DNA of 32,000 nucleotides from Flavobacteriaceae bacterium (GCA_965224465.1 OZ245049.1:3030001-3062000); one strand, 5' to 3'; positions 3,092-30,089 are shown, numbered from the stretch's first letter. A program made the numbers and translations. Notes: a model not told the origin generated them from the letters alone.

Positions 3092-6000
3092 ATGTTTTGT
3101 TTTGCTATGATAACAAAAAATAACCAACAGAGACCTTCCGTTAATTCACGTTTAATAAATAACAATCAATCGTATAATCAATGTATAGGTACTGTGTCTT
3201 TACTTGAAACTATAGATGATCGTGAAAAAACGACTGTAAAAACTATTAAATACCAGATATCCAATACAGATTGGGATGCTTTAATAAAGAAAGCTGAAAC
3301 GGATGATATTTTGCCTTTCGCTGTTATTTTAAACACATTTATTCATGTTATAGAGCGATGGAGTTCTTCGTCTAGACTTATTTTGACACCTATTGTGGTT
3401 TCTGATGTAGAAGCGGTTTCATATTTAGAACAATTGTTTTCGCTTAGGAAAGTGCCATGGAATGCCTCTTGTAAGTATTTAGAATCACAAATATTTACCG
3501 ATATAAAGGCTGAAGAGTCTGAAGATGAGGATGCAGGGATTTCTGTTTTTATAACTACAAATCTAGAAGTTACCAGTGCTACGAATAAAGAAAGTGTCGC
3601 GTTATTTTTAAATAATAACGATGAGGTAGCAGTAAAAGGATTGCACTACCAGCTAGAAGAAACCAATGATGGGATAGAAATAAGTTGGACATTTAATCAC
3701 ACTTCTATTTCTGAAGTGTTGTTACAAGAAATGTTTGCGGCACAAATACGTATATTAGATTGGTTGGTACAAGAAAATTGGGACGCCCCTTTATTGGATA
3801 TACTACCCGAGAATCAAAAAAGTATACGAGCTAAAATAAACAATACTCAAACTTTTGTGACAGAAAAATGCTTGCATCAGGAGTTTTTTGAGACTGCTAC
3901 AACGCATAGTGAAAAAACAGCATTAATTTGGGAAGAAGAAGGCAGTGCTATAAAAATAGGATATGGAGATCTAAAAGATAAAGTACTTAGACTGGCATCA
4001 ATATTAGTTAGTAAAAATATACAACAAGGAGATTTTGTAGGGATCACTATTCCAAGAGGACCCAACCAAATTGTTGCAGTATTAGCAGTACTAGCTATTG
4101 GAGCTATTTATGTTCCGATAGGAGTAGATCAACCGAAGTCTCGTCAGAAACGAATTCATCAAATAGCGGGTATTTCGTATGTGATTATGGATGAGGAAGT
4201 TTCAGGATTCACAGGCCTTGATGTGGCTATAATTCAAGTTGCAGAAGAAGCAACAGCAGCTCCTTTGTCTCAACCAATATTTGTAGATCCAAATAAATTG
4301 GCATACGTAATTTTCACCTCAGGATCTACAGGGGAACCTAAAGGCGTAGCAATTTCACACAGTGCTGCTCACAATACAATTCAGGATATAAATAAACGAT
4401 TTTCCGTAACAGAAAAGGACACGGCGCTTGCATTGTCGGCATTGGATTTTGATTTGTCTGTGTATGATATTTTTGGATTATTAGCTGTAGGAGGTACGCT
4501 TGTTATGCTAAATGAAAAAGTAAGGAGAGAAGCTTCCGTGTGGACAAATCTTATTCAGAGTACAGGAGTTACTATTTGGAATTCAGTACCCGCATTGTTA
4601 GAGATGTTACTTAGTACAACTTTAGAAAAAGAACGTCTTGTTTCTTTGCGATTAGTGATGGTCTCTGGAGATTGGGTAGGCTTAGATCTTTTTGAAAGGC
4701 TGCGAAATGTATCACCAGATTCTCTTTTGGTTGCTTTGGGAGGAGCTACAGAGGCTTCTATATGGTCTAATTTTCATAAAGTGACTTATGTTGATCCGAA
4801 ATGGAGTTCTATTCCCTATGGTAAACCGCTAGAAAATCAATGTTTTAGAGTGGTAGATTTGTTTGGTAGGGATTGCCCTGATAGGGTCACGGGGGAATTA
4901 TGGATTGGTGGTATTGGGCTCGCAAAAGGATATTTAGGGCAACCAGATTTAACGGCTGATAAATTTATAACAATGGATAATCAGCGTTGGTATCGTACAG
5001 GTGATTTAGGAAGGTATTGGTCTGATGGTACTTTAGAGTTTCTTGGAAGAAAGGACGATCAGGTAAAATTACGAGGCTACCGAATAGAATTAGGAGAAAT
5101 AGAAGCTTTATTAAAAAAATCATGGGGAGTAGAACAGGCTGTTGCTGCAATTGCATCCATAGAGGGTACGCAGCATTTGGTTGCCGCTGTAGTTTCTGAA
5201 AAAACAGCAACAAATAGTGCGATAGCCGAACCAATAATATCGGAAGAGGTTTTATTATATAGAACAGTTTCAAGAGAAAAACAGGCAGTATCTATAGAAG
5301 TAGTTTTGTTTGAACTACTACATCTTGAAAAACTACTTCAAAACAAAGATGTTTATTGGAATCCGATGGAGCAATTTGAGTTAGCAGAGGAGCATTTGGC
5401 TGTTGTACAACTTTGGTTAGAATGGCTTGTAAAACGACAATTGTTAATGTTGGAAAATAAAACGTATCGTATTGGGAATAGGTTACAGGAAGTTTTTGAA
5501 GCATGGAAAGTAAAAAGTACAGTGTTAGCTACAGATGGAATTGAAGCAAAAGAAGACGTATTTTTAAAAAGGGTACAGAAATGTTTGTTTGAGCGTATTC
5601 CTGATTATTATAAAATTCTTTCGGGAAATATAGCAGCCACAGTGTTATTGGATGATCCTATAATATCTCCAGAGATTTTAGCTACAAAAGATGCTGGAAC
5701 CTTATGGGGAATTCAGGAAATTGCAATAAGAATAAATAAGCTAGCGGTACTAAAAGGGAGGCCAATCCAAGTTGCAGTTTTGGGTGGAAGAACAGGTTTA
5801 ATGACTGCTAGGTTGTTAAAAATATCATCAGCAGCAGAAATTAGCTGTACCCTTCTTGAAACGGCACCCTCTATGATTGAGGCTGCTAAAAAGAATTTAG
5901 AACCTTTCCCAGAAAATGCCTCCTGTTATAGAATTCCCGAGAATAGAATCCCCGAGGAATTGCATTATAAATTTGATGTAGTCTTGGCTATAAATGCATT

Positions 6001-6757
6001 GCACAGGTATAAAGACCCAGAAGAAGGAGTTGCTTTGGCTTCACTATTGGTTGCAAATCAAGGAAAAATAATAGCCTTAGAGCACGGAGAACTTAGTCCA
6101 ATTGCTGTTGTAACTTCTGCCTTGTTGGATAAAGGATACACTGATTTTGACCATCAAAGAAAAGGAATGTGTAGCCCAATGCTAACGGGGCAGGAATGGA
6201 TGAGAATCTTCTCAAAATATGGATATACTAAAATAAGTTGCCATGCAGTTGGTTGCTCTTTTACCGAACTAATAGAAGTTGAATGTCCAGAGGAAAGGAA
6301 AGAAATAAGCTCAGAAACAATAATGGATTATGTATCTCAGCATCTACCAAGTCATATGGTTCCTGAAAAAATTGTTGTATTGCCATGGTTTCCACTCAGT
6401 AAAAACGGAAAAGTGAATCGTTCTGAAATTACCAAATATTTTGATTTTCAAGCCGCATCAACATGTATGGAAGAACCTCATAAGGGAATGGAGCAGGAAA
6501 TTGCGGATATATGGAAAGAACTACTTCATACAGCTGTTATTAGTAGGTATCACAGTTTTTTTCAGATAGGAGGAGATAGTTTGTTGGGAACACGTTTTTT
6601 GACCATTATCAAAGAACGTTTTGAAATAGATGTATCCTTGAGGCAACTATTTGAATTCCCTACGTTGATTGCTGTTGCTGCTATTGTTGAAGAAAAGTAT
6701 AATGTACTAGCGGAACGCATGGAAGAAATGGAAGAAATGGAAGAAGGAGAGATATGA
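3092..6757 (+). CDS. NRPS subunit: C/Cy C-lobe remnant - A(Cys, methyltransferase-like insert) - PCP
   Basis: 1221-aa ORF. A-domain cores are LAYVIFTSGSTGEPKG (A3), FDLSVYDIF (A4), GGATEASIW, YRTGDLGRY (A7), GRKDDQVKLRGYRIELGEIE (A8) and PLSKNGKVNR (A10). A ~365-aa insert sits between A8 and A10. The carrier motif is FFQIGGDSLLG. ATGA overlaps the next gene at 6754-6757. An alternative ATG lies at 3107. Confidence 0.9.
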   Translation: MFCFAMITKNNQQRPSVNSRLINNNQSYNQCIGTVSLLETIDDREKTTVKTIKYQISNTDWDALIKKAETDDILPFAVILNTFIHVIERWSSSSRLILTPIVVSDVEAVSYLEQLFSLRKVPWNASCKYLESQIFTDIKAEESEDEDAGISVFITTNLEVTSATNKESVALFLNNNDEVAVKGLHYQLEETNDGIEISWTFNHTSISEVLLQEMFAAQIRILDWLVQENWDAPLLDILPENQKSIRAKINNTQTFVTEKCLHQEFFETATTHSEKTALIWEEEGSAIKIGYGDLKDKVLRLASILVSKNIQQGDFVGITIPRGPNQIVAVLAVLAIGAIYVPIGVDQPKSRQKRIHQIAGISYVIMDEEVSGFTGLDVAIIQVAEEATAAPLSQPIFVDPNKLAYVIFTSGSTGEPKGVAISHSAAHNTIQDINKRFSVTEKDTALALSALDFDLSVYDIFGLLAVGGTLVMLNEKVRREASVWTNLIQSTGVTIWNSVPALLEMLLSTTLEKERLVSLRLVMVSGDWVGLDLFERLRNVSPDSLLVALGGATEASIWSNFHKVTYVDPKWSSIPYGKPLENQCFRVVDLFGRDCPDRVTGELWIGGIGLAKGYLGQPDLTADKFITMDNQRWYRTGDLGRYWSDGTLEFLGRKDDQVKLRGYRIELGEIEALLKKSWGVEQAVAAIASIEGTQHLVAAVVSEKTATNSAIAEPIISEEVLLYRTVSREKQAVSIEVVLFELLHLEKLLQNKDVYWNPMEQFELAEEHLAVVQLWLEWLVKRQLLMLENKTYRIGNRLQEVFEAWKVKSTVLATDGIEAKEDVFLKRVQKCLFERIPDYYKILSGNIAATVLLDDPIISPEILATKDAGTLWGIQEIAIRINKLAVLKGRPIQVAVLGGRTGLMTARLLKISSAAEISCTLLETAPSMIEAAKKNLEPFPENASCYRIPENRIPEELHYKFDVVLAINALHRYKDPEEGVALASLLVANQGKIIALEHGELSPIAVVTSALLDKGYTDFDHQRKGMCSPMLTGQEWMRIFSKYGYTKISCHAVGCSFTELIEVECPEERKEISSETIMDYVSQHLPSHMVPEKIVVLPWFPLSKNGKVNRSEITKYFDFQAASTCMEEPHKGMEQEIADIWKELLHTAVISRYHSFFQIGGDSLLGTRFLTIIKERFEIDVSLRQLFEFPTLIAVAAIVEEKYNVLAERMEEMEEMEEGEI
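3224..3796 (+). other. Remnant of the C-terminal lobe of a condensation/cyclization domain (no catalytic N-lobe)
   Basis: Residues ~45-235 align with the second half of the Cy domains in this window. ISNTDWDALIKKAETDDILPFAVILNTFIHVIERW matches IDPISWNSFIKSAATKNLTPSAALLTLYTEVLSAW, and GIEISWTFNH matches GVTLSWDTLD. No FPLTxxQxAYxxGR or DxxxxDxxS motif is present, and a stop codon sits at 3086-3088 just upstream. Confidence 0.55.
3854..6427 (+). other. Adenylation domain, cysteine-type code (DLYNMSLIWK by manual extraction)
   Basis: Code positions were read from FDLSVYD (D,L,Y), IWNSVP (N), LVMVSGDW (M,S), ALGGATE (L), EASIW (I,W) and NGKVNR (K). Confidence 0.8.
5204..6301 (+). other. Methyltransferase-like domain inserted in the A domain, atypical SAM motif I
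   Basis: The insert lies between A8 and A10. WLEWLVKRQLLMLENKTYRIG parallels WLDILTKRGYIERLGTGFSMG of the stand-alone MT at 9139-10227. Motif I reads VAVLGGRTGLM instead of ILEIGAGTGAT. LLETAP, FDVVLAINALH and GKIIALEH are retained. Confidence 0.6.
6479..6691 (+). other. Peptidyl carrier protein domain
   Basis: FFQIGGDSLLGTRF contains the phosphopantetheine Ser (residue 1163). It is followed by the acidic tail MEEMEEMEEGEI. Confidence 0.85.
6719..6745 (+). repeat. Perfect 3 x 9-bp tandem repeat (ATGGAAGAA) encoding (MEE)3 in the C-terminal tail
   Basis: Read directly: atggaagaa atggaagaa atggaagaa, immediately before ggagagata tga. Confidence 0.95.
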
Positions 6758-7854
6758 TAGGAATTATAGGGGGCTACGGAGAAGTAGGAATTAATGCGAC
6801 AAGACTGCTTGTAAAATGGAACAAACAACCAATAAAAGTAGGTGGGAGAAACCCTGAAAAAGCAAAAGAAAAGTTCGAAAAAGAATTCCCGGAAGTATCG
6901 TGGGTTTTTGTTAATGTGTCTGATGATAATAGTTTAGAAGCTTTTATTAAGGGCTGTAATGTTGTTGTAAACTGTGTAGGGCCATCACACAAAGTATCTT
7001 CCAGAGTGGCGAAAATATGTTTGTGTCATAGTTGTCACCATATTGATGCAGGTGTAGACAAAGTATTGGAAGGGATGCATAGCATACAGACGGATGTCTC
7101 TATTAGGTATGGAGCAGGAACAACACCTGGTTTAACGGGTATTTTACCACAATGGATGGCGCAAGAACTTGACACTGTAAATTCGTTGATACTGTTTACA
7201 GGAGCTTTGGATCGGTTTACAGTTTCTGGGGCTGAAGATTATCTAGTAGGTGTTTTAGAAGATGCGAATGAACCTTTAGCGGCTTGGAGAAATGGAAAAA
7301 AGAAATCCTCGGTATTAAAAAGACAATCAGGAATAACAGTTCCCTTTTTTCCTAGAGAAGTAACTGTTTTTCCATTTTTTGATACCGAATCTTTAGTGGT
7401 AGCTAGAAACTTAGACCTGATCAATGGAGATTGGAATTTAGTGATTGACGGTACCCATGTGCCAGCGACTTTAAATAGTGTTCGGTCTCATTTTTATAAA
7501 AACCCAAAAGAAGCCATCAAAAAATTGTGCTTAGCAGCAGATTTAGACCTAGCAGGTAGGCAAACATATTTTAACCTTATTGTTCAGTTGGAAGGTGTCA
7601 AAGACAGAAAACCATGCATAAGAACTGCGATTCTACAAATGGATAGGATGTCGGTTTTAACAGGAGCTATAACAGCAATTGCCTGTATTTCTATCGTAGA
7701 AGATAAAGTCCCCTCAGGAATAGGTGCGGTCGCAGAATTACCGCATCCTGAGAGAATTATGGAGCGTCTTATGGCGTATGGAATAGTAACGGATTTTAAA
7801 ATATTAGAAACTTCGATTGCGGATCTGTTAGAAGAAGTAGAAGGCGAATTATAA
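6754..7854 (+). CDS. Saccharopine dehydrogenase-like NAD(P)-binding oxidoreductase
   Basis: 366-aa ORF. It has an N-terminal Rossmann loop IIGGYGEVG (GxGxxG) and the VVNCVGP motif characteristic of the saccharopine dehydrogenase NADP-binding family. It is translationally coupled to the upstream NRPS (ATGA) and ends in LLEEVEGEL. Confidence 0.6.
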   Translation: MIGIIGGYGEVGINATRLLVKWNKQPIKVGGRNPEKAKEKFEKEFPEVSWVFVNVSDDNSLEAFIKGCNVVVNCVGPSHKVSSRVAKICLCHSCHHIDAGVDKVLEGMHSIQTDVSIRYGAGTTPGLTGILPQWMAQELDTVNSLILFTGALDRFTVSGAEDYLVGVLEDANEPLAAWRNGKKKSSVLKRQSGITVPFFPREVTVFPFFDTESLVVARNLDLINGDWNLVIDGTHVPATLNSVRSHFYKNPKEAIKKLCLAADLDLAGRQTYFNLIVQLEGVKDRKPCIRTAILQMDRMSVLTGAITAIACISIVEDKVPSGIGAVAELPHPERIMERLMAYGIVTDFKILETSIADLLEEVEGEL

Positions 7855-7956
7855 AAAAATGAAACGTGTTGTAATTGGTATAAAATGAGGTGTGATTCGT
7901 TTTATACGATCTATATACGCATGGAGAGGACCTCTTAAAACTAAAAAAATAAACAG

Positions 7957-9021
7957 ATGATACCAAAAAAAATAAAAACTGTAGTCTGCGGTTCTACATT
8001 CGGACAATTTTATCTCGAATCTTTAAAAAAATTACAAAATCAGTTTGATGTCGTTGGTTTACTGTCTCAAGGGAGTGAACGATCTAAGAAGTGTGCAGAA
8101 CAATACGGGCTTCCTTTATTTACGTCTATAGATCAATTGCCAGCAGATTTAGATTTGGCATGTGTTGTCCTTAGATCTGGAGTTATGGGTGGTAATGGGA
8201 CAGAATTATCACTTCAGTTTATAGAAAAAGGAATACATGTCCTACAGGAGCATCCTGTACATCATAAGGATTTAGCATTGTGTCTAAGAGCAGCACAAAA
8301 AAATAAAGTACGATTTCAAACAGGAGATTTATATGTGCATTTACCAGAGGTAAGGCGGTTTATAAATTGCGCAAAAGCATTATTAAAAGAACAAAAAGCA
8401 ACGTATATAGATGTGGCTTATGCATCTCAGGTTTCTTATCCATTAATGCATATTTTATCGGAGGCATTGCCAGGAACCAGGCCTTGGAAAATTGAAAAAA
8501 CCACTAAAACAGAAGGGCCTTTTACAGTATTGACAGGAAGTATAGGGAAAACGCCTATCATTCTTAGAGCTCATAATCAAATAAATCCAGATGATCCAGA
8601 CAATCATCTTCATTTATTACATCGAATTACAATTGGAGTCGAAGGAGGAAGTTTGTCTTTAAATGATACTCACGGTCCCGTAGTATGGCATCCGAGATTG
8701 CATGTTCCAGAAAATTTAGGAAGTATGAAGGAACTTTCAGCTACAAATGCTGCGTACCTTTTAGAGAATAGTGTACAGGTACTTGGCGAGTACTCGCCAA
8801 CTAATTATACGGAGATACTTTCTAAACAATGGCCCTTTGCTATAGGGGAAGATTTACGATCGATTAAAAAAAGCATGGAGACCAAGAAAGGGTTTCAGTT
8901 GAAGTCTCAAAACGAATTATTAGTTTCCATGCAATGGCAGGAGTTGACCAATGCATTGGGATATCCTTCTTTGGTAGCTCAAAGTAGTCATCAACCTTTA
9001 GCTGTTGATATTTTACAACAA
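7957..9021 (+). other. Thiazolinyl imine reductase domain
   Basis: The domain is collinear with my recollection of Irp3 and PchG. Matching strings are VVCGSTFGQFYL (Irp3 IVGAKFGEMYL), VGLLSQGSERS (VGLLAQGSARS), LACVVLRSGVMGGNGT (IACIVVRSTVAGGTGT), IHVLQEHPVH (VHVIQEHPLH), NPDDPDNHLHLLHR (DPDDPDMHSLIMHR) and GPVVWH (GPVIWS). Confidence 0.8.
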
Positions 9022-10230
9022 GCAGCCATGAAAACTCCGTCAACTTATGAACTTCTGAAGGAAAAAGAGGAGCCAAAGGAGTATCGTGAAGAAGATATTT
9101 ACTCCTGTACAGATGTTTCTGATGGTATATTGAAAAACATAACGATACAGCAGGTCAAAAATTTTGTAGACATATTGGATAAAGCTGTTTTGGATTCGAT
9201 GTTGTTTTCGTTGCAAAAACAAGGAATACTAATTGACAAAAATTTGCAGTATACAATATCTGATATTGTATCAGCTGCAAATATTGCTTCAAAGCATAAA
9301 GGGTTAATTACCTATTGGTTGGATATATTGACAAAAAGAGGATATATAGAGAGGTTAGGTACTGGTTTTTCTATGGGTGATGTAGTAATCACCACCGATA
9401 CTTTTAATAGGAGTTGGGGATTTGTCAAGGATGCTTGGAATAATAAATTAGGTGACCCACTAACAATGGAGTATTTGGTGAAAAATGCAGAGCAGTTACC
9501 AGAGCTAATGAATGATACTCAAAAAGCAGCATTATTATTGTTTCCGGAAGGTCGCTTAGATATTGCTAATTCATTATATAGAGATACCATTACAGCAAAA
9601 TATTTAAATGAGTCGGTATCTGAAGCAGTTTATAGAATTGCAAAATATAGGATGTCAAATTCTTCTTCTTTAAAACAGTTAAAAATACTTGAAATTGGTG
9701 CAGGAACTGGTGCAACAACAGTATCTGTAGCTTCAAAATTACAAGAAACTATTGTAAGTTATATTCATGTAGATTATTTGTTTACAGATGTTTCTGATTT
9801 TTTCTTAAACAACGCAAAGCATCTATTAAAAACCTATCGATGGATAAATTTTCAAGCTTTAGATATTGATCAGGATTTTATAGAACAGCAGGTGAAATCA
9901 GAGAGTTTTGATATAATTATTGCTGCAGGAGTTCTTAATAACGCCGAGAATACAGATAAAGTAATTGAACAAATGATGAATTCTTTAATAAAAGGAGGGT
10001 GGTTATTAATCACAGAACCTACAAGAGAATTTTTAGAAATTCTTATATCACAAGCTTTTATGATGACGATGCCAGAAGACGTACGAAAGGAGGAAAAAAC
10101 AACTTTTTTTACACCTTCTCAATGGAGTAACGTATTTAATAAAGCAGGTGCTCAAAAAATAGTTGTCCTACCAAAAGAAGACAATCCATTAACACCTTTT
10201 GAACAAAAATTATTCATTGTAAAAAAATAG
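7957..10230 (+). CDS. Fusion protein: thiazolinyl imine reductase (PchG / Irp3-YbtU family) + class I SAM-dependent methyltransferase
   Basis: 757-aa ORF; see the two domain entries below. Confidence 0.85.
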   Translation: MIPKKIKTVVCGSTFGQFYLESLKKLQNQFDVVGLLSQGSERSKKCAEQYGLPLFTSIDQLPADLDLACVVLRSGVMGGNGTELSLQFIEKGIHVLQEHPVHHKDLALCLRAAQKNKVRFQTGDLYVHLPEVRRFINCAKALLKEQKATYIDVAYASQVSYPLMHILSEALPGTRPWKIEKTTKTEGPFTVLTGSIGKTPIILRAHNQINPDDPDNHLHLLHRITIGVEGGSLSLNDTHGPVVWHPRLHVPENLGSMKELSATNAAYLLENSVQVLGEYSPTNYTEILSKQWPFAIGEDLRSIKKSMETKKGFQLKSQNELLVSMQWQELTNALGYPSLVAQSSHQPLAVDILQQAAMKTPSTYELLKEKEEPKEYREEDIYSCTDVSDGILKNITIQQVKNFVDILDKAVLDSMLFSLQKQGILIDKNLQYTISDIVSAANIASKHKGLITYWLDILTKRGYIERLGTGFSMGDVVITTDTFNRSWGFVKDAWNNKLGDPLTMEYLVKNAEQLPELMNDTQKAALLLFPEGRLDIANSLYRDTITAKYLNESVSEAVYRIAKYRMSNSSSLKQLKILEIGAGTGATTVSVASKLQETIVSYIHVDYLFTDVSDFFLNNAKHLLKTYRWINFQALDIDQDFIEQQVKSESFDIIIAAGVLNNAENTDKVIEQMMNSLIKGGWLLITEPTREFLEILISQAFMMTMPEDVRKEEKTTFFTPSQWSNVFNKAGAQKIVVLPKEDNPLTPFEQKLFIVKK
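9139..10227 (+). other. SAM-dependent methyltransferase domain (intact motif I)
   Basis: Motifs seen are ILEIGAGTGATT (motif I), acidic FTDVS, FQALDIDQD, FDIIIAAGVLNN and KGGWLLITEP. The N-terminal helical part (WLDILTKRGYIE) resembles NRPS-embedded MT domains. Confidence 0.8.
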
Positions 10231-10233
10231 AAA

Positions 10234-10956
10234 ATGTTGAAATGCAGTCACATATTATGTAAGGTTGATAATATTAAAGCCGTTGTTAAAGATTATGAAT
10301 CTCAAGGGTTTTCTTTGGTCTGGGGGAGTACTCCAGAAAAAGCTCATAATGCCTTATTATGGTTTGAAGAAGGTCCTTATATCGAGTTTTTTCAGTTGCC
10401 GAAAAAGTTTGAAATCTTAAAGTATCCCTTACAATTGTTTTATGGTCGATCCGTTGGAAGGAGGTGGGAGAAATGGGCAAAAGCTACAGAAGGCTGGTGT
10501 GATATAGCATTGGAACCAGCTGAATTTAAAACAGGTTTTAGCCAACATTCACAGGAGTATCCATTAGATATAAAAACAATAAAGAAAGCCTTACAGGTTT
10601 CTGGGATTTCATCTTCTAGGATTGTCCGTAAAAAAAGAGTAAGTCCAGAAGGGGAAGAGGTGAAATTCAGTGTTTTTTGTCCAGATCAAGAGGGATTTCC
10701 TTTTGTTTTTTCTGGGTATAAAACGTCACAACGACCTTTGGAAATAAAACATCCGAATGGAGCTAAAAAAGTAGCATGGGTAAAAGTAGGGGTGAACCCT
10801 AAGGACATCACACAATTTAAGAAGCTAATTAAAGAGGATACATTTATTAAAACAGAAGAGCACATACAAACACATGTTTGTAATGTGGGGCTCGTAGGTT
10901 TGCAATCCAACTTAGATCCAAAATTTTTGCACGGCGCTGTATTTACAGCATTATAA
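10234..10956 (+). CDS. VOC / glyoxalase-like domain protein (function in the pathway unknown)
   Basis: 240-aa ORF. HILCKVDNIKAVVKDYESQGFSLVWG ... AHNALLWFEEGPYIEFFQ resembles the Glyoxalase-like (PF13468-type) pattern H.v..v.dl...GF....G...GT.Nal..f.dg.YlEl. The call rests on memory of the family pattern only. Confidence 0.4.
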   Translation: MLKCSHILCKVDNIKAVVKDYESQGFSLVWGSTPEKAHNALLWFEEGPYIEFFQLPKKFEILKYPLQLFYGRSVGRRWEKWAKATEGWCDIALEPAEFKTGFSQHSQEYPLDIKTIKKALQVSGISSSRIVRKKRVSPEGEEVKFSVFCPDQEGFPFVFSGYKTSQRPLEIKHPNGAKKVAWVKVGVNPKDITQFKKLIKEDTFIKTEEHIQTHVCNVGLVGLQSNLDPKFLHGAVFTAL

Positions 10957-10975: not shown

Positions 10976-13900
10976 ATGTTATCAACTACTACAAATGCCA
11001 CCTTAGATTTACTAGTAAGACTTAGAAAAGACGGAATTAAACTTTGGGAAGAAAACGGAAAATTAAAGTTTAAAGCACCCAAAGGGCTCCTTCAACCAGA
11101 AGATCTGGAAGCGCTAAAAAAATATAAAACAGAGGTAATTGAACAATTAAAATTAGAAAGTAAATCAATTACTGTAGTTGTAAATCCAGCTTCAAAATTT
11201 GATCCTTTTCCATTAACAGATGTACAGTCAGCTTACTTGTTGGGGCGTAACGAAGTATTTGATTATGGAGGTGTTGCCTGCCATATTTATTTAGAATTAA
11301 AATATTCACATTTAGAAAAAAAGAGGGTACAAGAGGTTTGGGAAATGCTTATTTCTAGGCATGAAATGTTAAGAGCAACTATAGATAAAGAAGGACATCA
11401 ACGTATTATGGAGTTTCATCCAGAATTCGAATTAACGTATACAGATGCGAGCACTTGGACAGAAAAGGAAAAGGATGTAGCCTTAGATGAAATTCGGGAG
11501 GATATGGGGCACCGTGTTTATGACACTTCTAGTTGGCCTTTGTTTGGAATAGGAGTGACTCAAACATCAGAAGATGCTATTCTTCATTTCTCTATGGAAT
11601 TTTTGATTGCAGACTGGGCGAGTATCTGGTTGCTCTTGTCAGAGTTCGAAGCTCTTTATACATCTTTAGAGACACCTTTACCTAAGTTAAACCTTAGTTT
11701 TAGAGATTATTTGATTGCAGAAAGAGGACTGAGAGAAACCATGTCTTATGCAAAAGATAAACGCTATTGGTTGGATCGAATTCACAGTTTACCAGCAGCA
11801 CCAGATCTTCCTTTAGCAAGAGCACATAAACCTTCTGGAAAAGGACGTTTTACACGTCGTTTTATGGAATTAGAGATGTCTGAATGGCAACGGATAAAAG
11901 AACAGAGTCAACAATTGGGATTAACACCAACAACTGTTATTATGACTGCCTATGCAGCGGTTATAGAGCGCTGGAGTCGCACAAAAAAGTTTTGTTTAAA
12001 TCTTACGGTATTAAACCGATTGCCTTTGCATGAAGATGTAAATATTATTGTAGGAGATTTTACATCGGTCAGTTTATTAGAGGTGGATTGGAGTACGGAT
12101 CAATCGTTTAAAGAACGTGCAAAAACCTTAAATAATCAGTTGTTTGATGATTTAGATCACCGTTTATTCTCGGGTGTTGAGGTGATGAGAGAAATTGTTA
12201 GACAGAGAGGTAGGGATGCAGCTCTTATGCCGTATGTGTTTACGAGTGCTATTGGACTGACAAATGCTGGAGAAGGAAATCAAAGAAAAGGAAAATTAGG
12301 CGGATATGGAATAAGTCAAACGCCGCAGGTATTTATAGATTGTCAGGCAATGGATACCCCAGGAGGCTTGCATATCAATTGGGATATTAGAGCGGGTGTT
12401 TTTCCAGATGATCTGATCGATGATATGTTTAATGCATTCAAGGGATTACTACAAAATTTAGTGACAAAAGACGCGACTTGGAAAGAGAATGTTTGTATTG
12501 ATATACCAAAATGGCAAGAATTGGAAAGGCAGGTAATTAATAATACACAAGCCCCTTTATCAAACAACGTGTTGCATAAAAAAATTGTAGAGCAGATCGT
12601 AAAAACACCAGATGCACCAGCAGTTTTTGATTCTGAAGGACAAACAACGTATCGAGAACTTGGATTAAAAGCAAGCGCAGTGTCCGAAGCGTTGGAGACT
12701 TTAGGATGTAAGGCGCAGGATAAAGTGGTTATTTCTATGGATAAGGGAGTGGGTCAGGTTATTTCTGTATTAGGTGTTTTGTCAACGGCTGCGGTTTATG
12801 TACCGATAGATGTGTTTCAGCCTACCGAGAGAATAAATGCCATGATAGCACATGCGGATATTCGTTTTGTGATTACAGATAAGAAAAATAAAACCAAATG
12901 GGCAGCGCATATCCATGTAATTTATATAGATGAATTAGAACTAAAAACCGAAATCACCTTAAAAACTACGGCAGATCCGACCTTGCCTGCGTATGTAATT
13001 TATACTTCAGGTTCTACAGGGCAACCAAAAGGAGTGGTGATTAATCACATCGCTGCTCTAAATACGATTGCTGCTATTAACAAGCAGTTTCTTGTGCAGC
13101 CCCAAGACAGCGTATTAGGTCTTTCGCAATTAGGTTTTGATTTATCAGTATTTGATATTTTTGGAGTACTCTCTGTTGGAGGAGCGATTGTTTATCCTGA
13201 ACAAGAACGGAAAAACGACCCTTCACATTGGGTAGCATTGATTCAGAAATACGACGTTACTATTTGGAATACAGTACCAGCTTTAATGCAAATGTTAGCT
13301 ACCTATTTACTTACAGAAACCAATATCAAAATACCAAAATTAAGACTGGCATTGCTTTCTGGAGATTGGATTCCGTTAACATTACCCGATATTTTAGTGA
13401 AACGCTTGCCACAGCTAGAGGTAATTAGCCTTGGAGGTGCAACAGAGGCATCTATTTGGTCCATTTATCATATTTATAAAGGATTAGAATCGGATTGGAA
13501 TAGTATTCCTTATGGTAGGCCTTTAACAAATCAAGGGTTTAGAGTACTGGATAGTACCCTAAGAGATTGCCCTGTTTGGACAATCGGAGAATTGTTTATT
13601 ACAGGGGATGGACTGGCTGATGGATATTTAAACGAGATCGCATTGACAAAAAAGTCGTTTTTTAATCACCCTGTAGATGGGCAACGGATGTATCGTACTG
13701 GAGATTTAGGACGCTATACTCCAGGAGGAGAAATAGAATTCTTAGGGCGTGAGGATAATCAAGTTAAAATAAGAGGACATCGTATAGAATTAGGAGAGAT
13801 AGAATCTGCATTGTTAAAACATCCAAAAGTTAGTGCAGTAGGAGTTGTGGCAGATGGTTCTGGGCAAGAGAAATCTTTATTAGGAGTGGTAGAACTTATG

Positions 13901-15916
13901 CATAAAGATAAGCTTGCAAAGAAAAAAGGAAAGGAGAGTGGCAAAAAAATACGGGATGAGGTAAGTGAAAAAATTAAGAATTTTAATACAGAAGAAAATA
14001 GAGAAGCGGATAAGTATGCTGATTATCTAGGTTTAATCCTACAGACAATAGGTAAAAATAATTCAGAGAACCATCCTCTTCGAATACTACAAATAGGAGA
14101 GAAAGGAAAAGAAAATTTGGATGCAGTTGTACAACATTTAGAGGGTATATCTTTTGAGTATCTATATACGCATTCTGACATTGCTGTTTTAAAAGAATTT
14201 TCATTAAAGTACGCAGAGGAAGAGGGCATTAGATTTGAAGTTTTTGATAGTAATATAGCCTACAGGACACAAGGATTTGAGCCCAATAGTTTTGATATTA
14301 TTATTGCGATAGGGTTGGTAGCTAATAGAACTATTGTAAAAGAATTAATTCGTGCAAACGGTTGGTTTGTTAATGGTATAGAAAATACGGATTCTTCTTT
14401 AGTGATAACAGATACAAAATTAAAGGTGCCAGAACATAAATTATTTCTAACGCAGGTAAAAGAAGACCAATATTTTGTAAGTGCCTCAGAGCTGTCTCGT
14501 TTTTTATCGAAACATGTTCCAGAATATATGATTCCCAGCCATCTTCAGGTTGTAGATACATTACCAATTACCAAAAACGGAAAAATGGATCGTAAAACTA
14601 TTGCAAAGTGGAGACCTTATCATGTAAATGGAGCGATCATTGGGAGTACAGATCACGCCTTAGATACCTTAGAAATTGCATTGTCAAAACAATGGGCTGA
14701 TGCGTTAAATATGAAAGGGATAGGTAGATTACAAAATTTTTATGACTTAGGAGCAGATTCTTTGATTATGGCTAAGATGGCAGGAGAATTAAGAGATGCC
14801 TTGGCAAAAGAAACGCCTCCTGTAAAGATTGCTTATGATGCGCTATTGAGACAGATGTTAAACTTCCCTACAATAGCTGGGCTGGCAAATTTTATCAGAT
14901 CAAAAAAAGAAGGGGCAGATGCTCTTTGTAGTACAGCAACACAGGAAGATGGAGATAGTACTTCTGCAAGTAATGGGGTACTGACTTCTTATGGAAATAG
15001 TAATAACGGATTACTTCGTGTAGTGTTTCATGCAGGAATAGGTACAATGAATTGTTTTCTTCCATTGTTAGGAGAATTAGAGAAACAGAATTTAGGCCCA
15101 ATTGTAGGTATTACGGTGAAGGACACGGAAGTGTATTGTGATTTAGAACCAGAGGAATTGATAGAATTGGTTGCGGAAGATTACGCCACACGATTATTAG
15201 AAACGGGACATAAAAAAATGCAGTTGATAGGCTATTGTATGGGAGGTCAGTTTGCCATTGAAGTTGCAAGACGTTTGGTAGAAAATGGAATAGAAATCGT
15301 AGACCTTGTATTGGTAGATAGTCATCCTGTATATATAGATGTGAAAGATGACCTGGTTATAGAATCATTATTTGTTCCTAACCTAGGAGTTTCTATGGAA
15401 CAAGCTGGTTTTGGTGGGGCTGATCCAATGGATATTGGGAGCGCATTTATGCATATTATAGCAGAAAATAAAGGAGTGATTCCTAATGGCTCACCGGGGA
15501 AACTTACGGGAGATAAAGGCATGGAAGCGGTGAGTACTTTATTTAAAAAACTTTCATCTTTTGATATGAGAACGCGTTTTACAGCTTATGTAAATGCTAT
15601 TTATGATGTGACTGGAGAAAAAATGGAAGTAGAAATGGCAGAGGGCTTATTTAGAATGTACCGCCAGAGTTATATTGCTTCTCAATTTATTCCACTTCCA
15701 TATATGGGGGACATACGGTTTCTAATCGCTACGGGACAATCTGGGTTTTTACCAGGGACAGTGAAAAAAACAATCGATTGCTGGACCAATGCTTGTCTTG
15801 GAGAATTGACTGTTATGGAAATTAAAGGAGATCACTTTACATGTATAGAACCTCCTCATTTAGCACATTTGGCAACAATTATTAGAGAACCTCTTCTTAT
15901 TCCAATAGAGTCTTAG
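10976..15916 (+). CDS. Terminal NRPS: beta-hairpin docking domain - Cy - A(Cys, vestigial MT insert) - PCP - TE
   Basis: 1646-aa ORF; motifs are listed in the domain entries below. Confidence 0.92.
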   Translation: MLSTTTNATLDLLVRLRKDGIKLWEENGKLKFKAPKGLLQPEDLEALKKYKTEVIEQLKLESKSITVVVNPASKFDPFPLTDVQSAYLLGRNEVFDYGGVACHIYLELKYSHLEKKRVQEVWEMLISRHEMLRATIDKEGHQRIMEFHPEFELTYTDASTWTEKEKDVALDEIREDMGHRVYDTSSWPLFGIGVTQTSEDAILHFSMEFLIADWASIWLLLSEFEALYTSLETPLPKLNLSFRDYLIAERGLRETMSYAKDKRYWLDRIHSLPAAPDLPLARAHKPSGKGRFTRRFMELEMSEWQRIKEQSQQLGLTPTTVIMTAYAAVIERWSRTKKFCLNLTVLNRLPLHEDVNIIVGDFTSVSLLEVDWSTDQSFKERAKTLNNQLFDDLDHRLFSGVEVMREIVRQRGRDAALMPYVFTSAIGLTNAGEGNQRKGKLGGYGISQTPQVFIDCQAMDTPGGLHINWDIRAGVFPDDLIDDMFNAFKGLLQNLVTKDATWKENVCIDIPKWQELERQVINNTQAPLSNNVLHKKIVEQIVKTPDAPAVFDSEGQTTYRELGLKASAVSEALETLGCKAQDKVVISMDKGVGQVISVLGVLSTAAVYVPIDVFQPTERINAMIAHADIRFVITDKKNKTKWAAHIHVIYIDELELKTEITLKTTADPTLPAYVIYTSGSTGQPKGVVINHIAALNTIAAINKQFLVQPQDSVLGLSQLGFDLSVFDIFGVLSVGGAIVYPEQERKNDPSHWVALIQKYDVTIWNTVPALMQMLATYLLTETNIKIPKLRLALLSGDWIPLTLPDILVKRLPQLEVISLGGATEASIWSIYHIYKGLESDWNSIPYGRPLTNQGFRVLDSTLRDCPVWTIGELFITGDGLADGYLNEIALTKKSFFNHPVDGQRMYRTGDLGRYTPGGEIEFLGREDNQVKIRGHRIELGEIESALLKHPKVSAVGVVADGSGQEKSLLGVVELMHKDKLAKKKGKESGKKIRDEVSEKIKNFNTEENREADKYADYLGLILQTIGKNNSENHPLRILQIGEKGKENLDAVVQHLEGISFEYLYTHSDIAVLKEFSLKYAEEEGIRFEVFDSNIAYRTQGFEPNSFDIIIAIGLVANRTIVKELIRANGWFVNGIENTDSSLVITDTKLKVPEHKLFLTQVKEDQYFVSASELSRFLSKHVPEYMIPSHLQVVDTLPITKNGKMDRKTIAKWRPYHVNGAIIGSTDHALDTLEIALSKQWADALNMKGIGRLQNFYDLGADSLIMAKMAGELRDALAKETPPVKIAYDALLRQMLNFPTIAGLANFIRSKKEGADALCSTATQEDGDSTSASNGVLTSYGNSNNGLLRVVFHAGIGTMNCFLPLLGELEKQNLGPIVGITVKDTEVYCDLEPEELIELVAEDYATRLLETGHKKMQLIGYCMGGQFAIEVARRLVENGIEIVDLVLVDSHPVYIDVKDDLVIESLFVPNLGVSMEQAGFGGADPMDIGSAFMHIIAENKGVIPNGSPGKLTGDKGMEAVSTLFKKLSSFDMRTRFTAYVNAIYDVTGEKMEVEMAEGLFRMYRQSYIASQFIPLPYMGDIRFLIATGQSGFLPGTVKKTIDCWTNACLGELTVMEIKGDHFTCIEPPHLAHLATIIREPLLIPIES
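10988..11149 (+). other. TubC_N-type (beta-hairpin) N-terminal docking domain
   Basis: LDLLVRLRKDGIKLWEENGKLKFKAPKGLLQPEDLEALKKYKTEVIEQL fits the G(V/I)xLWxExGxLxxxAPxGxLxxxL pattern of the TubC/EpoB N-terminal docking domains. Confidence 0.7.
11198..12490 (+). other. Heterocyclization (Cy) domain 3 with ExxxxDxxS variant motif
   Basis: FPLTDVQSAYLLGR is present, and SQTPQVFIDCQ follows later. The catalytic-site motif reads EFLIADWAS (E208, codon gaa at 11597-11599) instead of DxxxxDxxS. Confidence 0.85.
12563..14605 (+). other. Adenylation domain, cysteine-type code (DLFNLSLIWK by manual extraction)
   Basis: Cores are AYVIYTSGSTGQPKG, FDLSVFDIF, IWNTVPAL, LALLSGDW, SLGGATEASIW, YRTGDLGRY, GREDNQVKIRGHRIELGEIE and PITKNGKMDRK. 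Confidence 0.8.
13898..14470 (+). other. Vestigial methyltransferase core inserted between A8 and A10 (SAM loop ablated)
   Basis: ILQIGEKGKE stands where ILEIGAGTGA is expected. YTHSD, FEVFDSNI, FDIIIAIGLV and ANGWFV mirror FTDVS, FQALDIDQ, FDIIIAAGVL and KGGWLL of the intact MT at 9139-10227. The insert is only ~190 aa. Confidence 0.5.
14657..14890 (+). other. Peptidyl carrier protein domain
   Basis: FYDLGADSLIMAKM contains Ser1262. Confidence 0.85.
15008..15895 (+). other. Type I thioesterase domain with cysteine at the nucleophile position
   Basis: The nucleophile elbow is GYCMGG (ggc tat tgt atg gga ggt, 15230-15247), where GxSxG is expected. LVLVDSH (Asp) and GDHFTCIE (His) are conserved. 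Confidence 0.8.
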
Positions 15917-15960
15917 CATTGAAAGAGGATGATAGATACACTAAAATAAACAGTAAAAAA

Positions 15961-17307
15961 ATGAACAATCAAACACAAAAAGAATTTATACTTACGGGAA
16001 AAATGTGGCCTGTTATGTGGAAACTTTCATGGCCAGCTATTATAGCAATGGTTTTATATGGATTTAATGTATTGCTGGATGCAATTTTTGTAGGAACTTT
16101 TGTAGGTGAAAATGCATTGGCAGGGGTTTCAATTGTATATCCTTTGGCGTCTTTTACTATGGGAATAGGTTCCTTGGTAGGCGTTGGAGCAGGGTCTCTA
16201 TTAAGTATTGCTTTAGGGGCGAATGATATAGAAAAACAAAAACGTCTTTTGGGAAATTTTAATTCTTTGAATATTATATGTACCGTTATTTACATGATTC
16301 TGGCATTGATTTTTGCAGAACCGTTAGTAAAAATGATGGGAGGTACAGGTTCTCCACTGGAGTATGGAGTTAGCTATTTTAGAATCAGTATAATTGGTTC
16401 GTTTTTCTGGATTTATGGATTGTCTGCAAATATGGTGGTTAGAGCAGAAGGAAAGATGAAAAAAGCTGCTCTGATGATGGGAATTGGCTTGGTTGTAAAC
16501 ACCGTGTTTAATTATATTTTTGTTGTACTCCTAGACTATGGAGTGGCGGGAGCTTCTTGGGCATCAAATATTGGGATGTTTATATATTCTTTACTAGGAT
16601 ATCTATATTTTAGAAAAGGTAAAACATCCTTTCCTGCTTTTCCAAAAACATTGTATTGGGATAAAGAAATAATCAAATCTATTTTCTCTATGGGAGCTCC
16701 TTCATTGATTATGACGGTGATGACTATTGTACAGGCAATTGTTATCTTTAATGCATTAGCGAACTATGGATCTATTTTTGAAATTGCATTTTATGGTGCT
16801 ACCTTTAGGATCATAAATTTCTTAATGACGCCACTTTATGGACTTATGCGTGCATTACAACCCGTAGTCGGAATTAATTATGGTGGAGGGCACTACCGAA
16901 GAGTGATACAGAGTTTTTGGGTTTTTACAATCACCGGTGGATTTATAATACTTCCTATCTGGCTAATAATGATGGCACTTCCCGATATCGCATTAGGAAC
17001 TATGTTAGTCAATAGTAGTTTTACGACAGAAAGTATATGGAATTTTAGAATGATTATTTCTGTACTCCCTTTTATGCCAATTGTTTTTATGGCAATGAGC
17101 TTTTTTCCTGCGATTGATAAAGGAAAACCCGCAGCAATTATTGGAATCGCAAGGCAATTAATTTTTTATGTCCCCATGATGCTTATTTTACCGTCTATAT
17201 TTGGAACACAATCTATATACTGGGGATCCGCCTTAATAGATGTAGTGATTGTTGTCTATACAATGGTGTTGGTACTGTTGGAATTTAGGCGTTTAAAAGC
17301 ATTGTAA
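15961..17307 (+). CDS. MATE family efflux transporter
   Basis: About 12 predicted hydrophobic helices. The N-terminus WKLSWPAIIAMVLYGFNVLLDAIFVG and the internal repeat SMGAPSLIMTVMTIVQAIVIF are typical of the MATE/NorM family. ATG at 15961 is preferred over the TTG at 15919 listed in the ORF track. Confidence 0.8.
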   Translation: MNNQTQKEFILTGKMWPVMWKLSWPAIIAMVLYGFNVLLDAIFVGTFVGENALAGVSIVYPLASFTMGIGSLVGVGAGSLLSIALGANDIEKQKRLLGNFNSLNIICTVIYMILALIFAEPLVKMMGGTGSPLEYGVSYFRISIIGSFFWIYGLSANMVVRAEGKMKKAALMMGIGLVVNTVFNYIFVVLLDYGVAGASWASNIGMFIYSLLGYLYFRKGKTSFPAFPKTLYWDKEIIKSIFSMGAPSLIMTVMTIVQAIVIFNALANYGSIFEIAFYGATFRIINFLMTPLYGLMRALQPVVGINYGGGHYRRVIQSFWVFTITGGFIILPIWLIMMALPDIALGTMLVNSSFTTESIWNFRMIISVLPFMPIVFMAMSFFPAIDKGKPAAIIGIARQLIFYVPMMLILPSIFGTQSIYWGSALIDVVIVVYTMVLVLLEFRRLKAL

Positions 17308-17382: not shown

Positions 17383-18009
17383 ATGATAGAAATAAGGCTG
17401 TTTAATTGTGATGATTTTGAAGATTCATTATATCAGGAATTATTATATTCAGTATCCAAAGAGATACAAAAAAAACTGAATGGCTTTGTTTTTATAAAAG
17501 ACCGAAAACGGAGCCTTTTGGGGAAATTAATGGTTCGGAAATATTGTATTGAGAATAACATGCCCTTTGATTGGACTGATTGGAAGATCGATGCTTTTGG
17601 AAAGCCATTCTTATCTAATGGCTTGTTTTTTAACATATCGCATTCGGAAAAATATGTTTGTGTTGCCTTTTCTAATACTTGTATTGGGGTAGATATAGAA
17701 ATTGTAAAACCATTAAAGGTAGATGGATTGTTGCATTTTTTTCATCAAGACGAGCAAGATTATATGCAGTCTTCCCAGGGTAAATTAGATACTTTTTATA
17801 CCATTTGGACCAGAAAGGAAGCCTATTTAAAAGCGAAAGGAGTAGGCTTGTCAGAGTCCTTAAACAAAGTGAGTTGCTTAAGCAATTGTATTGTGCAAGA
17901 AAAAGTGTGGTTCATACATACCTTAGAGGTTATTTCTGGATATAAAACGGCTATTTGCACTCCTCTAGCTTTTGTAAATATCCAGATTGTCTTAAACCCC
18001 AACTTGTAA
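17383..18009 (+). CDS. Sfp-type 4'-phosphopantetheinyl transferase
   Basis: Motifs are FFNISHSEKYVCVAF (motif 1), IGVDIEIV (GxDxE) and WTRKEAYLKAKG (W/FxxKEAxxK). Confidence 0.85.
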   Translation: MIEIRLFNCDDFEDSLYQELLYSVSKEIQKKLNGFVFIKDRKRSLLGKLMVRKYCIENNMPFDWTDWKIDAFGKPFLSNGLFFNISHSEKYVCVAFSNTCIGVDIEIVKPLKVDGLLHFFHQDEQDYMQSSQGKLDTFYTIWTRKEAYLKAKGVGLSESLNKVSCLSNCIVQEKVWFIHTLEVISGYKTAICTPLAFVNIQIVLNPNL

Positions 18010-18026: not shown

Positions 18027-18060
18027 ACCATCAATAATTTAAGGATTATTGATGGTTTTA
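18027..18060. terminator. Hairpin between the convergent operons; likely intrinsic terminator for the plus operon
   Basis: A perfect 12-bp stem (accatcaataat at 18027-18038, attattgatggt at 18045-18056) has a 6-nt loop and is followed by ttttaataatgttttt. The right arm encodes the last codons (..TINNP*) of the minus-strand thioesterase gene. Confidence 0.5.
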
Positions 18061-18788
18061 ATAATGTTTTTCAGGTAATTTTCACCTAGATTTTGCACGA
18101 AAAAATGATCCCCCTTAAATTCCTTTATCGTAAAATTATCTCTTGTAAGTTCTTTCCAGTAATTCATTATGGGAAGGGTAGCATCAATGTCTTCTGCTGC
18201 CGCATGTGCAACAATAGGAATGTTTATTTTTTGACTTTTATAGCTAAAATTTTCGTGTAAACGTAAATCACTTCGAATCATAGGAATTAAGAATGCGATC
18301 AATTCCTTATTGTCCAAAACTTCTTTTGGTGTCCCGTTTAAGAGTCTAAGTTCTGCAACCAATTCTTCATCACTCAATTTGCTGTGAAACTCAGAAGTAT
18401 CCATTTTATGCGGAGCATGTCTTCCAGCAACAATAATTTTTTCTGGAGAGATATTGTATTTTTTTTTCAATTGAAAAGCGGTTTCAAAAGCGATGACAGC
18501 GCCCATACTATGACCAAAAAAAGAAAAAGGAGTATGACTGTCAATTACAGGGACAATGTTTTTCATCAACTCATGTACCAAAAGGTTAAAATCTTCTATA
18601 CAGGATTCCCCAATTCTACTTCCTCTTCCGGGGAGTTCAATCGGGATAAATTCTATGGAAGTATCGTGTGTAACCCAATGTTTAAAGATACTAGAACCTC
18701 CTCCTGCATAATGAAAACAGAATACTTTAGCCTTAGATTTTTTTGAATTTCGAATTCCGTAAGGAAACCATTTATTGTTATAATTCAT
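18039..18788 (-). CDS. Type II (editing) thioesterase
   Basis: The 249-aa ORF carries FCFHYAGGGSSIFKHW, GHSMGAVIAFE (GxSxG) and GDHFF. It starts 11 nt downstream of the megasynthase stop. Confidence 0.85.
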   Translation of the reverse strand: MNYNNKWFPYGIRNSKKSKAKVFCFHYAGGGSSIFKHWVTHDTSIEFIPIELPGRGSRIGESCIEDFNLLVHELMKNIVPVIDSHTPFSFFGHSMGAVIAFETAFQLKKKYNISPEKIIVAGRHAPHKMDTSEFHSKLSDEELVAELRLLNGTPKEVLDNKELIAFLIPMIRSDLRLHENFSYKSQKINIPIVAHAAAEDIDATLPIMNYWKELTRDNFTIKEFKGDHFFVQNLGENYLKNIIKTINNP

Positions 18789-29939: not shown

Positions 29940-30089
29940 ATTTCCAAGTGAAGGTTTAGAAATGGAATTATTTTTTGTTTTAGCTAGACAAAAAATGAAA
30001 GGATAGTATTAGCTATCGTTCTATTTTTTAACAACGCTAGAACGTAAAACAAACTATTTATATCGGTCATTTTGGGTTTTAGTTGGTAT
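29940..30089 (-). repeat. Repeat copy C: T-S-(54-bp insert)-H, whose T part encodes the last 12 codons and stop of the peptidase-like gene
   Basis: This is the inverted partner of copy A (see copy A). It carries 54 extra bp (29971-30024) between S and H. The T part encodes IPTKTQNDRYK-stop. Confidence 0.85.

Follow-up and report, generated by a model that had tools for sequence, protein, structure and literature searches.

Results

A reductase-methyltransferase fusion in a hybrid PKS-NRPS cluster

We analysed a 32,000-nt stretch of DNA from a Flavobacteriaceae bacterium (GCA_965224465.1, OZ245049.1:3030001-3062000), hereafter the window, which has a GC content of about 35% and in which all coordinates are counted from the first letter. 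The window carries a hybrid polyketide synthase-nonribosomal peptide synthetase (PKS-NRPS) gene cluster on both strands, and within it a single ATG-initiated open reading frame (ORF) at 7957-10230 on the plus strand encodes a protein of 757 aa in which a thiazolinyl imine reductase (Red) is joined to a class I S-adenosylmethionine (SAM) methyltransferase (MT). A first-pass annotation of the window had proposed this fusion; Pfam and Foldseek agreed on it, and every sequence feature that the annotation had cited was recovered at or inside the positions where it had been placed. In the Pfam search GFO_IDH_MocA matched aa 6-123 (E 6e-21), Irp3-like_C matched aa 146-244 (E 2e-14), and several models of class I MTs fell on aa 571-733 (Methyltransf_12, E 1.6e-15).

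The AlphaFold2 model of the protein, built with 35 homologues, had a mean pLDDT of 89.3, with both halves at approximately 90, while pLDDT was low across aa 350-377 and fell below 50 at aa 369-372, marking a flexible interdomain linker at about aa 356-377 (9022-9087, plus strand). When the halves were compared with solved structures by Foldseek, the N-terminal half matched 5KVQ with a target-normalized TM-score of 0.85 over 362 columns (range for 5KVQ and 4GMG, 0.85-0.87), presenting the Irp3 fold of a Rossmann domain and a C-terminal alpha/beta domain, and the C-terminal half matched the C-methyltransferase (C-MT) of CurJ, 5THY, with a TM-score of 0.85 over 392 columns. By these matches and the AlphaFold2 model, both halves are complete. 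Taken together with the motifs described below, these results indicate that the protein is a true reductase-MT fusion in which both halves are apparently catalytically competent.

The reductase half, of the Irp3/YbtU/PchG type, occupies aa 1-355 (7957-9021, plus strand) and was identified by TIGR01761, phmmer and Foldseek. The NCBIfam model TIGR01761, 'thiazolinyl imide reductase', gave 289.1 bits (cut-off 188.8) over model positions 2-347 of 350, and phmmer matched this half to Irp3 (4GMF) with an E value of 8e-38. It carries the nucleotide-binding motif VVCGSTFGQFY, the motif QEHPVHH at aa 97-103 (8245-8265) and Tyr126, and the elements GxxFGxxY, EHPxH, the Tyr of (L/F)Y(V/P)H (LYVH in this protein) and the DPDDPDNH loop are all conserved. 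Across 35 homologues G12, F15, G16, E98, P100 and Y126 were invariant, and H102 was present in at least 90%. In Irp3, His101 and Tyr128 are residues to which roles have reportedly been ascribed.

The MT half and the atom that it may methylate

The MT half (aa 378-757; 9088-10227, plus strand) has a helical lid at its N-terminal end and a Rossmann core after it, the architecture of PKS and NRPS assembly-line MTs according to the Foldseek match to CurJ. Its motif I, the SAM-binding glycine loop ILEIGAGTGATT (aa 577-588; 9685-9720, plus strand), includes ILEIGAGTG; the ribose-binding Asp is D611 in FTDVS, and FDIIIA lies at aa 651. Where C-MTs have their catalytic His, and PchE its His1204, the protein has Asn661-Asn662 (LNNA; 9937-9942, plus strand). 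A census of MT-type domains was taken over all 84 sources, and in the 49 fused MTs that it contained the three motif I glycines were kept in 49, 49 and 47 sequences, Asp611 in all 49 and Glu687 in 48, with Asn at the C-MT His position in 48. The fused MT thus departs from the His-Glu dyad of C-MTs, the His being replaced by Asn661 and the Glu being kept.

This conservation bears on whether the MT half methylates at all. It could be catalytically silent, serving the reductase as a scaffold or docking domain, as may be the case for the SrbF-like pseudo-reductase-MT proteins described below. Non-methylating MT folds have been recruited in the same system, as in the epimerase (E) domain of PchE, and the Red-like half of SrbF-like proteins is degenerate. 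However, the SAM-binding motifs are kept in 47-49 of the 49 fused homologues, even those with an overall identity of only about 30%; this would be unexpected in a silent domain, and we regard the explanation as highly improbable.

For the choice between ring nitrogen and carbon, two comparator MTs were drawn from the plasmid collection: MT2 of HMWP1 and a PchF-like MT of Burkholderia cenocepacia. HMWP1 MT2, of the yersiniabactin system, has LHDA at the His position, and it is said to be a C-MT acting on the thiazoline alpha-carbon. The B. cenocepacia MT is embedded in the adenylation (A) domain of a protein with the order TubC_N-Cy-A(MT)-PCP-TE (Cy, heterocyclization; PCP, peptidyl carrier protein; TE, thioesterase), and has LNNA, as does the fused MT; a TIGR01761 reductase gene lies directly after it. 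These sequences would form a coherent pattern, with His where a carbon acid is deprotonated and Asn or Glu where a ring nitrogen is methylated.

Alternatively, the fused MT might be a C-MT for the alpha-carbon of the thiazoline or thiazolidine, in the manner of HMWP1 MT2, or for a PKS-made beta-keto unit. By phmmer the MT half matched the DisA/DszA C-MT (6CCA, 1e-26), AprA MT2 (6D6Y) and CurJ (5THY), and its top PDB matches in sequence and fold, the citrinin CMeT among them, are PKS C-MTs; moreover, the cluster contains a ketosynthase-acyltransferase-acyl carrier protein (KS-AT-ACP) module without reductive domains, and the embedded MT of mupirochelin has been proposed as C-methylating. Against these points stand the near-uniform replacement of His by Asn in the fused MTs, when both HMWP1 MT2 and the epimerase inserts, which deprotonate carbon, retain the His, and the presence of the fused gene in clusters that have no PKS module, so that C-methylation appears an improbable function. 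Since the His/Asn pattern agrees with the N-methyl-thiazolidines found in known products of the family, N-methylation is the best reading, and reduction followed by N-methylation would be the most plausible chemistry of the fusion.

The fusion is widespread

A search of a collection of 5.8 billion proteins returned 130 proteins at E <= 1e-5. Among the best 120 of these, all but one (a 603-aa fragment) were 726-833 aa long and carried both Pfam signatures, nearly all of them aligning end to end, and identity to the window protein ranged from 80% to 39% among the matches listed. The architecture is therefore not an assembly artefact, as it was recovered end to end in nearly all of at least 120 listed database proteins. 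The closest named relative was from Aquimarina aquimarini Aq135 (80-82% aa identity), and the hosts included Aquimarina, Brevibacillus, Paenibacillus, Aneurinibacillus, Sporomusa, Pelosinus and Clostridium, as well as Streptomyces, Kitasatospora, Alkalilimnicola, Pantoea, Pluralibacter and Salmonella. When one genome from each GTDB species was scanned, 552 stretches encoded a relative of either half; 79 distinct loci were kept, 48 of which had the fusion.

Full-length fused homologues were also found on plasmids of Klebsiella pneumoniae (CP032834.1, 41%), Clostridium butyricum (NZ_CP013238.1, 47%) and Anaerococcus prevotii (NC_013164.1, 30%), indicating mobility of the cassette in hosts of clinical relevance. 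Fusion is a labile trait: in Sporomusa ovata a gene encodes the reductase alone, with 62% identity to the Red half of the window protein, and Nocardia has adjacent, separate Red and MT genes. In the literature found, SCO7684/5/8 were listed merely as 'hypothetical protein'.

The architecture has already been named, as the NCBI product 'bifunctional Gfo/Idh/MocA oxidoreductase/class I SAM MT' (PMC10127202, supplementary Table S1). The novelty that the first-pass annotation had seen in the fusion is consequently lost in large part, since it is common and has a database name, though no biochemical characterization of it was found in the literature. The fusion is an old, widespread variant across several phyla that did not arise in this cluster, and the window protein adds one more, ordinary member to a widespread family that already has a database name, within a known pathway class.

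Two A-domain inserts with different fates

Both NRPS subunits encoded on the plus strand have an insert in their A domain, and the first-pass annotation had considered both to be decayed MTs. The first subunit (1221 aa; 3092-6757, plus strand) comprises a Cy remnant, an A domain interrupted by a PchE-type epimerase-like domain, and a PCP. Its insert, of MT fold, lies between A8 and A10 (aa 671-1104; 5102-6403, plus strand) and extends the A8-A10 distance to 438 aa, compared with about 72 aa in an uninterrupted A domain; motif I reads VAVLGGRTG, with VLGGRTG at aa 896 (5777-5797), and a His is found in NALHRY. The insert aligned to residues 1080-1247 of the PchE E domain (7EMY), as the annotation's mention of that domain had anticipated, with VAVLGGRTG opposite VAVLDTRAG and NALHRY opposite AALHAY, the His of which is H1204. 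The active-site residues of PchE are H1204 and E1234 (PMC8807600), and in the region of the latter the acidic residue of the insert was offset by one (EHGELSP versus DLLCESP in PchE). In the 77 internal-module inserts of the census the third motif I Gly was Arg in 63, the His was kept in 73 and Glu687 in 77. Judged by these residues, internal-module inserts are a conserved, constrained class with a disabled SAM loop and a retained catalytic His. The insert at 5102-6403, which shares the Gly-to-Arg change of PchE with this class, is by the same criteria a case of neofunctionalization of the PchE epimerase type and not of decay, contrary to the earlier view. In the same subunit, aa 1-260 (3092-3870) matched the C-terminal lobe of homologous NRPS Cy domains, while Pfam returned only a weak GNAT match; this segment is probably the remnant half of a Cy domain.

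The insert of the terminal subunit (10976-15916, plus strand; TubC_N dock, Cy, A with insert, PCP, TE) had a different fate. Located between A8 and A10 at aa 943-1200 (13802-14575, plus strand), with an A8-A10 distance of 262 aa, it retains a Rossmann core of about 95 aa (aa 1028-1117; 14057-14326), and it has lost the helical lid and the C-terminal part that intact orthologous inserts possess. ILQIGEKGKE lies at aa 1037 (14084-14113), and FDIIIA follows at aa 1106; GxGxG has become GEKGK, the loss of the glycine loop that the first-pass annotation had noted, and in the MAFFT alignment the ribose-binding Asp is replaced by His (YTHSD). The insert at 13802-14575 gave no Pfam MT model and no PDB MT match. 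In the 30 full-length terminal-module inserts, all three motif I glycines were intact in 30, Glu occupied the His position in 27 and Glu687 was present in 30. The terminal insert of the window is a real relic with its SAM motifs destroyed.

FDIIIA does occur in both the terminal insert and the fused MT, as had been pointed out, but it does not link the two domains in particular, since it is a generic strand-4 motif, (F/Y)D(V/I)(V/I)(L/I)A, found in all MT-type inserts of the family. Identity between the relic and the fused MT was 27%, along 95 aa (E 1e-5), and with such low identity and a generic motif we rejected the idea that the shared FDIIIA reflects a recent duplication.

Loss of the terminal MT and presence of a trans-acting MT

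To relate the state of the terminal insert to the presence of an MT in trans, 59 loci could be scored. In the 38 with a fused gene the terminal insert was full-length in 22, truncated in 9 and missing in 7, and a strict GxGxG pattern was present in 14 of the 22 full-length inserts; the corresponding numbers for the 21 reductase-only loci were 12, 5 and 4. All five reductase-only loci with a truncated insert had a separate trans MT, and none of the four without an insert did. Overall, a trans MT, fused or separate, accompanied 14 of 14 truncated terminal inserts, and truncation was seen in 0 of the 11 loci without a trans MT (one-sided Fisher p 0.036, uncorrected for phylogeny, the 14 cases representing about five lineages). 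This distribution gives a hint that a trans MT may make the cis MT dispensable.

Decay of the terminal insert was seen repeatedly: in Aquimarina, in some Brevibacillus, in Paenibacillus arenosi, in an Anaeromicropila metagenome-assembled genome (MAG; L036) and in a Pseudonocardiales group. In Aquimarina the terminal MT was lost secondarily, and such losses have recurred. Truncation, which leaves 190-290 aa between A8 and A10 instead of about 460, took place independently in the lineages of Brevibacillus loci L007, L008, L009 and L046, of L014 and L036, and of Pseudonocardiales loci L056, L060, L068, L074 and L076, all of which have a trans MT, fused or separate.

The first-pass annotation had explained the fusion by a move of methylation from the assembly line to the reductase. 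As an account of its origin this is contradicted by the occurrence of the fusion in several phyla and by the full-length embedded MT in 22 of the 38 scorable fused loci: because fusion and full-length embedded MT usually coexist, the fusion is not a consequence of embedded-MT loss. Their coexistence fits two N-methylations on two rings.

A narrower version would be that, in this cluster, N-methylation passed from the terminal PchF-type embedded MT to the fused enzyme, which would then methylate the terminal ring or both rings. The contrast between a relic terminal insert and an intact fused MT speaks for such a transfer, as does the restriction of truncated inserts to loci with a trans MT. On the other hand, the association is weak once the truncated cases are collapsed to lineages, and a cluster that has lost its embedded MT may simply make a product that is short of one methyl group. 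The fused gene moreover stands beside a full-length MT, or beside no insert, in most fused loci, so the fusion predates the loss and is independent of it. We therefore consider a transfer of this kind unlikely.

Other genes of the cluster and its pathway family

The gene preceding the fusion (6754-7854, plus strand; Pfam PF03435) encodes a saccharopine-dehydrogenase (SDH)-like NADP oxidoreductase, a homologue of SrbE/MchE/EqbM and candidate second reductase; an SDH-like gene was found somewhere in 68 of 83 loci and adjoins the reductase gene in most. The fusion gene is followed by a glyoxalase/VOC-like gene (10234-10956, plus strand; SrbJ/MchJ homologue by Pfam PF13468 and synteny) and by the terminal NRPS subunit, whose TE has the active-site motif GYCMGG with a Cys nucleophile (15230-15247, plus strand); across related loci some TEs read GYC.GG and others GYSLGG. 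Further along the plus strand, Pfam identified a MatE exporter (15919-17307) and an Sfp-type phosphopantetheinyl transferase (17383-18009).

The minus strand encodes a type II thioesterase (18039-18788), a PKS-NRPS of 2871 aa (18800-27415; KS-AT-ACP, Cy-A-PCP, oxidase [Ox], TubC_N, Cy), a starter module of fatty acyl-AMP ligase (FAAL) and ACP (27418-29535) and, adjoining the FAAL gene, a 630-aa ORF (30054-31946) with no Pfam match at E <= 1. The Ox domain of the PKS-NRPS (aa 2181-2350; 20366-20875, minus strand) was missed by Pfam, which returned nothing in this linker region, and was recognized only by sequence search of the PDB, as a BmdC-type FMN oxidase (phmmer to 7LY5, E 5e-17). Its presence suggests that the first azoline would be oxidized to an azole by an embedded domain and not by a P450 of the kind that sorangibactin and mupirochelin use. 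TubC_N stands in the middle of the same protein (aa 2375-2423), before a lone C-terminal Cy, and the PKS-NRPS looks as if two once-separate subunits had been fused; the A-PCP partner of this Cy is encoded on the opposite strand, at 3092-6757.

The order interrupted-A NRPS, SDH-like, Red-MT, usually VOC, and TubC_N-Cy-A-PCP-TE was conserved in Bacteroidota, Bacillota, Actinomycetota and Enterobacteria, and the cassette from the SDH-like gene to the terminal subunit was syntenic in Aquimarina, Brevibacillus, Streptomyces and Salmonella. In one Aquimarina locus (L002, GCA_921010045.1) a pyridoxal phosphate (PLP) enzyme of Cys/Met metabolism is encoded at 19690-20832, directly downstream of MatE, and might have a part in supplying homocysteine; no PKS or FAAL gene lies within 10 kb, and its starter part is therefore different or distant.

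The tailoring cassette corresponds to that of the sorangibactin family. Sorangibactin tailoring involves SrbE (SDH-like), the MTs SrbF and SrbG, the P450 SrbH, the Irp3-like reductase SrbI and the VOC protein SrbJ (Gao et al. 2023, PMC10127202), and deletion of each tailoring gene abolishes sorangibactin A, with no role given to SrbE, SrbF, SrbG or SrbJ (PMC10127202). Mupirochelin has the same genes, mchE to mchJ, and bulbichelin and anthrochelin are further members. Sorangibactin, mupirochelin and bulbichelin carry a tandem pair of N-methyl-thiazolidines, and the SrbI/MchI reductase is separate from the SrbF/G and MchF/G MTs. A TE with a Cys nucleophile is rare and is known from SrbD, AntB and BbchF, where off-loading is onto homocysteine.

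Discussion

Proposed role of the fused enzyme

We propose that the product of 7957-10230 probably works in trans on a thiazoline assembly line of the sorangibactin/coelibactin type, as a tailoring enzyme with two steps, which reduces a ring and then N-methylates it. With NADPH, the Irp3/PchG-type half would turn a carrier-tethered thiazoline into a thiazolidine by reducing its C=N bond, and the PchF-type class I MT half would then transfer a methyl group from SAM to the new ring nitrogen, the fusion keeping both consecutive activities on one carrier-bound intermediate. The most likely client would be the ring built by the 3092-6757 module, which needs a trans MT because its PchE-type epimerase insert cannot bind SAM or methylate. 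The SDH-like protein would be a candidate second reductase for the other ring, and the terminal thiazolidine might be left unmethylated or also be served by the fused enzyme. While completeness, motif conservation, distribution and synteny were read from the sequences and models directly, the chemistry and substrates, the order of the steps, the choice of ring and any channelling are those that homology would predict.

Several points weigh against this proposal. The nearest solved structures of the MT half are PKS C-MTs, and the call between N- and C-methylation would rest on the His-to-Asn signature and a single PchF-like comparator, which was called PchF from its architecture (the PchF/PchG arrangement) and not from annotation. 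No biochemical characterization of any fused member was found in the literature. For sorangibactin, too, the Irp3-like and the SDH-like reductase have not been assigned to particular rings (PMC10127202). The AlphaFold2 model had a pTM of 0.55, so the relative orientation of the halves is not predicted and channelling is speculative. Finally, loci L037, L055, L057 and L062-L065 have the reductase without a trans MT, indicating that the MT is not obligatory for reductase function.

Going further, the fused enzyme could be the sole reduce-and-methylate catalyst of the pathway, visiting two successive carriers, installing both N-methyl-thiazolidines and replacing PchF-style cis-methylation, with a lipidated, FAAL/PKS-primed azole-bis(thiazolidine) metallophore as product; we put this forward tentatively, as a possible but doubtful extension. 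If it were true, the fusion would serve as a 'Rosetta stone', implying that the SrbG/MchG MT and the SrbI/MchI reductase work together on one ring.

As an enzyme type the fusion is not new, being common and NCBI-named in a family with known products (sorangibactin, mupirochelin and bulbichelin). Its value is as a lead, providing testable assignments for the trans MTs of the sorangibactin family and for its two reductase-like proteins. These assignments have three bases, namely the fusion of an SrbI-type with an SrbG-type protein, the lack of the His in fused, terminal embedded and PchF-like MTs, and the internal inserts with a disabled SAM loop; the resulting prediction is that the trans MT N-methylates the ring reduced by the Irp3-type reductase, on the module with the epimerase insert. 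We found no report in the literature of a sorangibactin-class compound from Bacteroidota, and the FAAL/PKS-primed, Ox-bearing cluster from this phylum is a reasonable target for product discovery, possibly yielding a new lipidated metallophore from Aquimarina.

Comparison with known systems

By ORF-level BLAST the reductase half was nearest to stand-alone SrbI-like proteins (38-40% identity) and the MT half to SrbG-like proteins (34-38%). SrbF-type proteins of Sorangium and relatives share with the window protein the order of Red-like domain and MT and the NCBI product name, but they are only about 28% identical to it, their Red-like half is without EHPxH, the Tyr and the DPDDPDNH loop, and their MT has the His (LHNA). 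By these differences SrbF-like proteins are a separate, older paralogue, with a pseudo-reductase as their reductase-like half. The features that they have lost are all kept by the window protein, which accordingly joins a functional SrbI-type reductase to an SrbG-type MT. SrbF-like Red-like-MT fusions, with the GxGxG loop kept, were seen in Sorangium cellulosum So0157-2 (L070, 4184-6487) and in a proteobacterial MAG (L081, 6786-8993). The Microbulbifer bulbichelin locus (L083), where residues 2-753 were matched in the scan, was rejected as a case of the same fusion when ORF-level BLAST resolved separate genes, MT then Red.

In the yersiniabactin system, Irp3/YbtU resembles the N-terminal half of the window protein in fold and motifs, but YbtU lacks an MT, the thiazolidine of yersiniabactin bears no N-methyl group, and HMWP1 MT2, a C-MT, has retained the His. 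The epimerase domain of PchE/HMWP2 is the counterpart of the insert at 5102-6403 in its position between A8 and A10, its MT fold, the Gly-to-Arg change in motif I and the His1204 equivalent, and differs from it in the Glu1234 equivalent, which is offset by one residue in the insert. In pyochelin biosynthesis, methylation by PchF occurs only once the ring has been reduced by PchG (PMC10510592). By analogy, the fused enzyme would first reduce a PCP-bound thiazoline and then N-methylate the thiazolidine, and its LNNA is that of the PchF-like MT; however, pyochelin uses a separate reductase and an MT in cis, within the A domain of PchF, whereas in the window protein MT and reductase are one chain, and the MT would act in trans.

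The closest parallels are with the srb, mch, bbch, ant and coelibactin clusters, which, like the window (6754-10956), have an SDH-like protein, an Irp3-like reductase, a trans class I MT and a VOC protein beside the NRPS genes. The sorangibactin family also shares the Cys-nucleophile TE (GYCMGG in the window) and three heterocyclization modules of which the first azoline is oxidized. The window differs from the family in that its reductase and SrbG-type MT are one polypeptide, a BmdC-type Ox domain is embedded in place of a P450, a FAAL-ACP and KS-AT-ACP starter takes the place of the salicylate synthase and aryl-AMP ligase, the terminal embedded MT is a relic, and the host is an Aquimarina-like member of the Bacteroidota.

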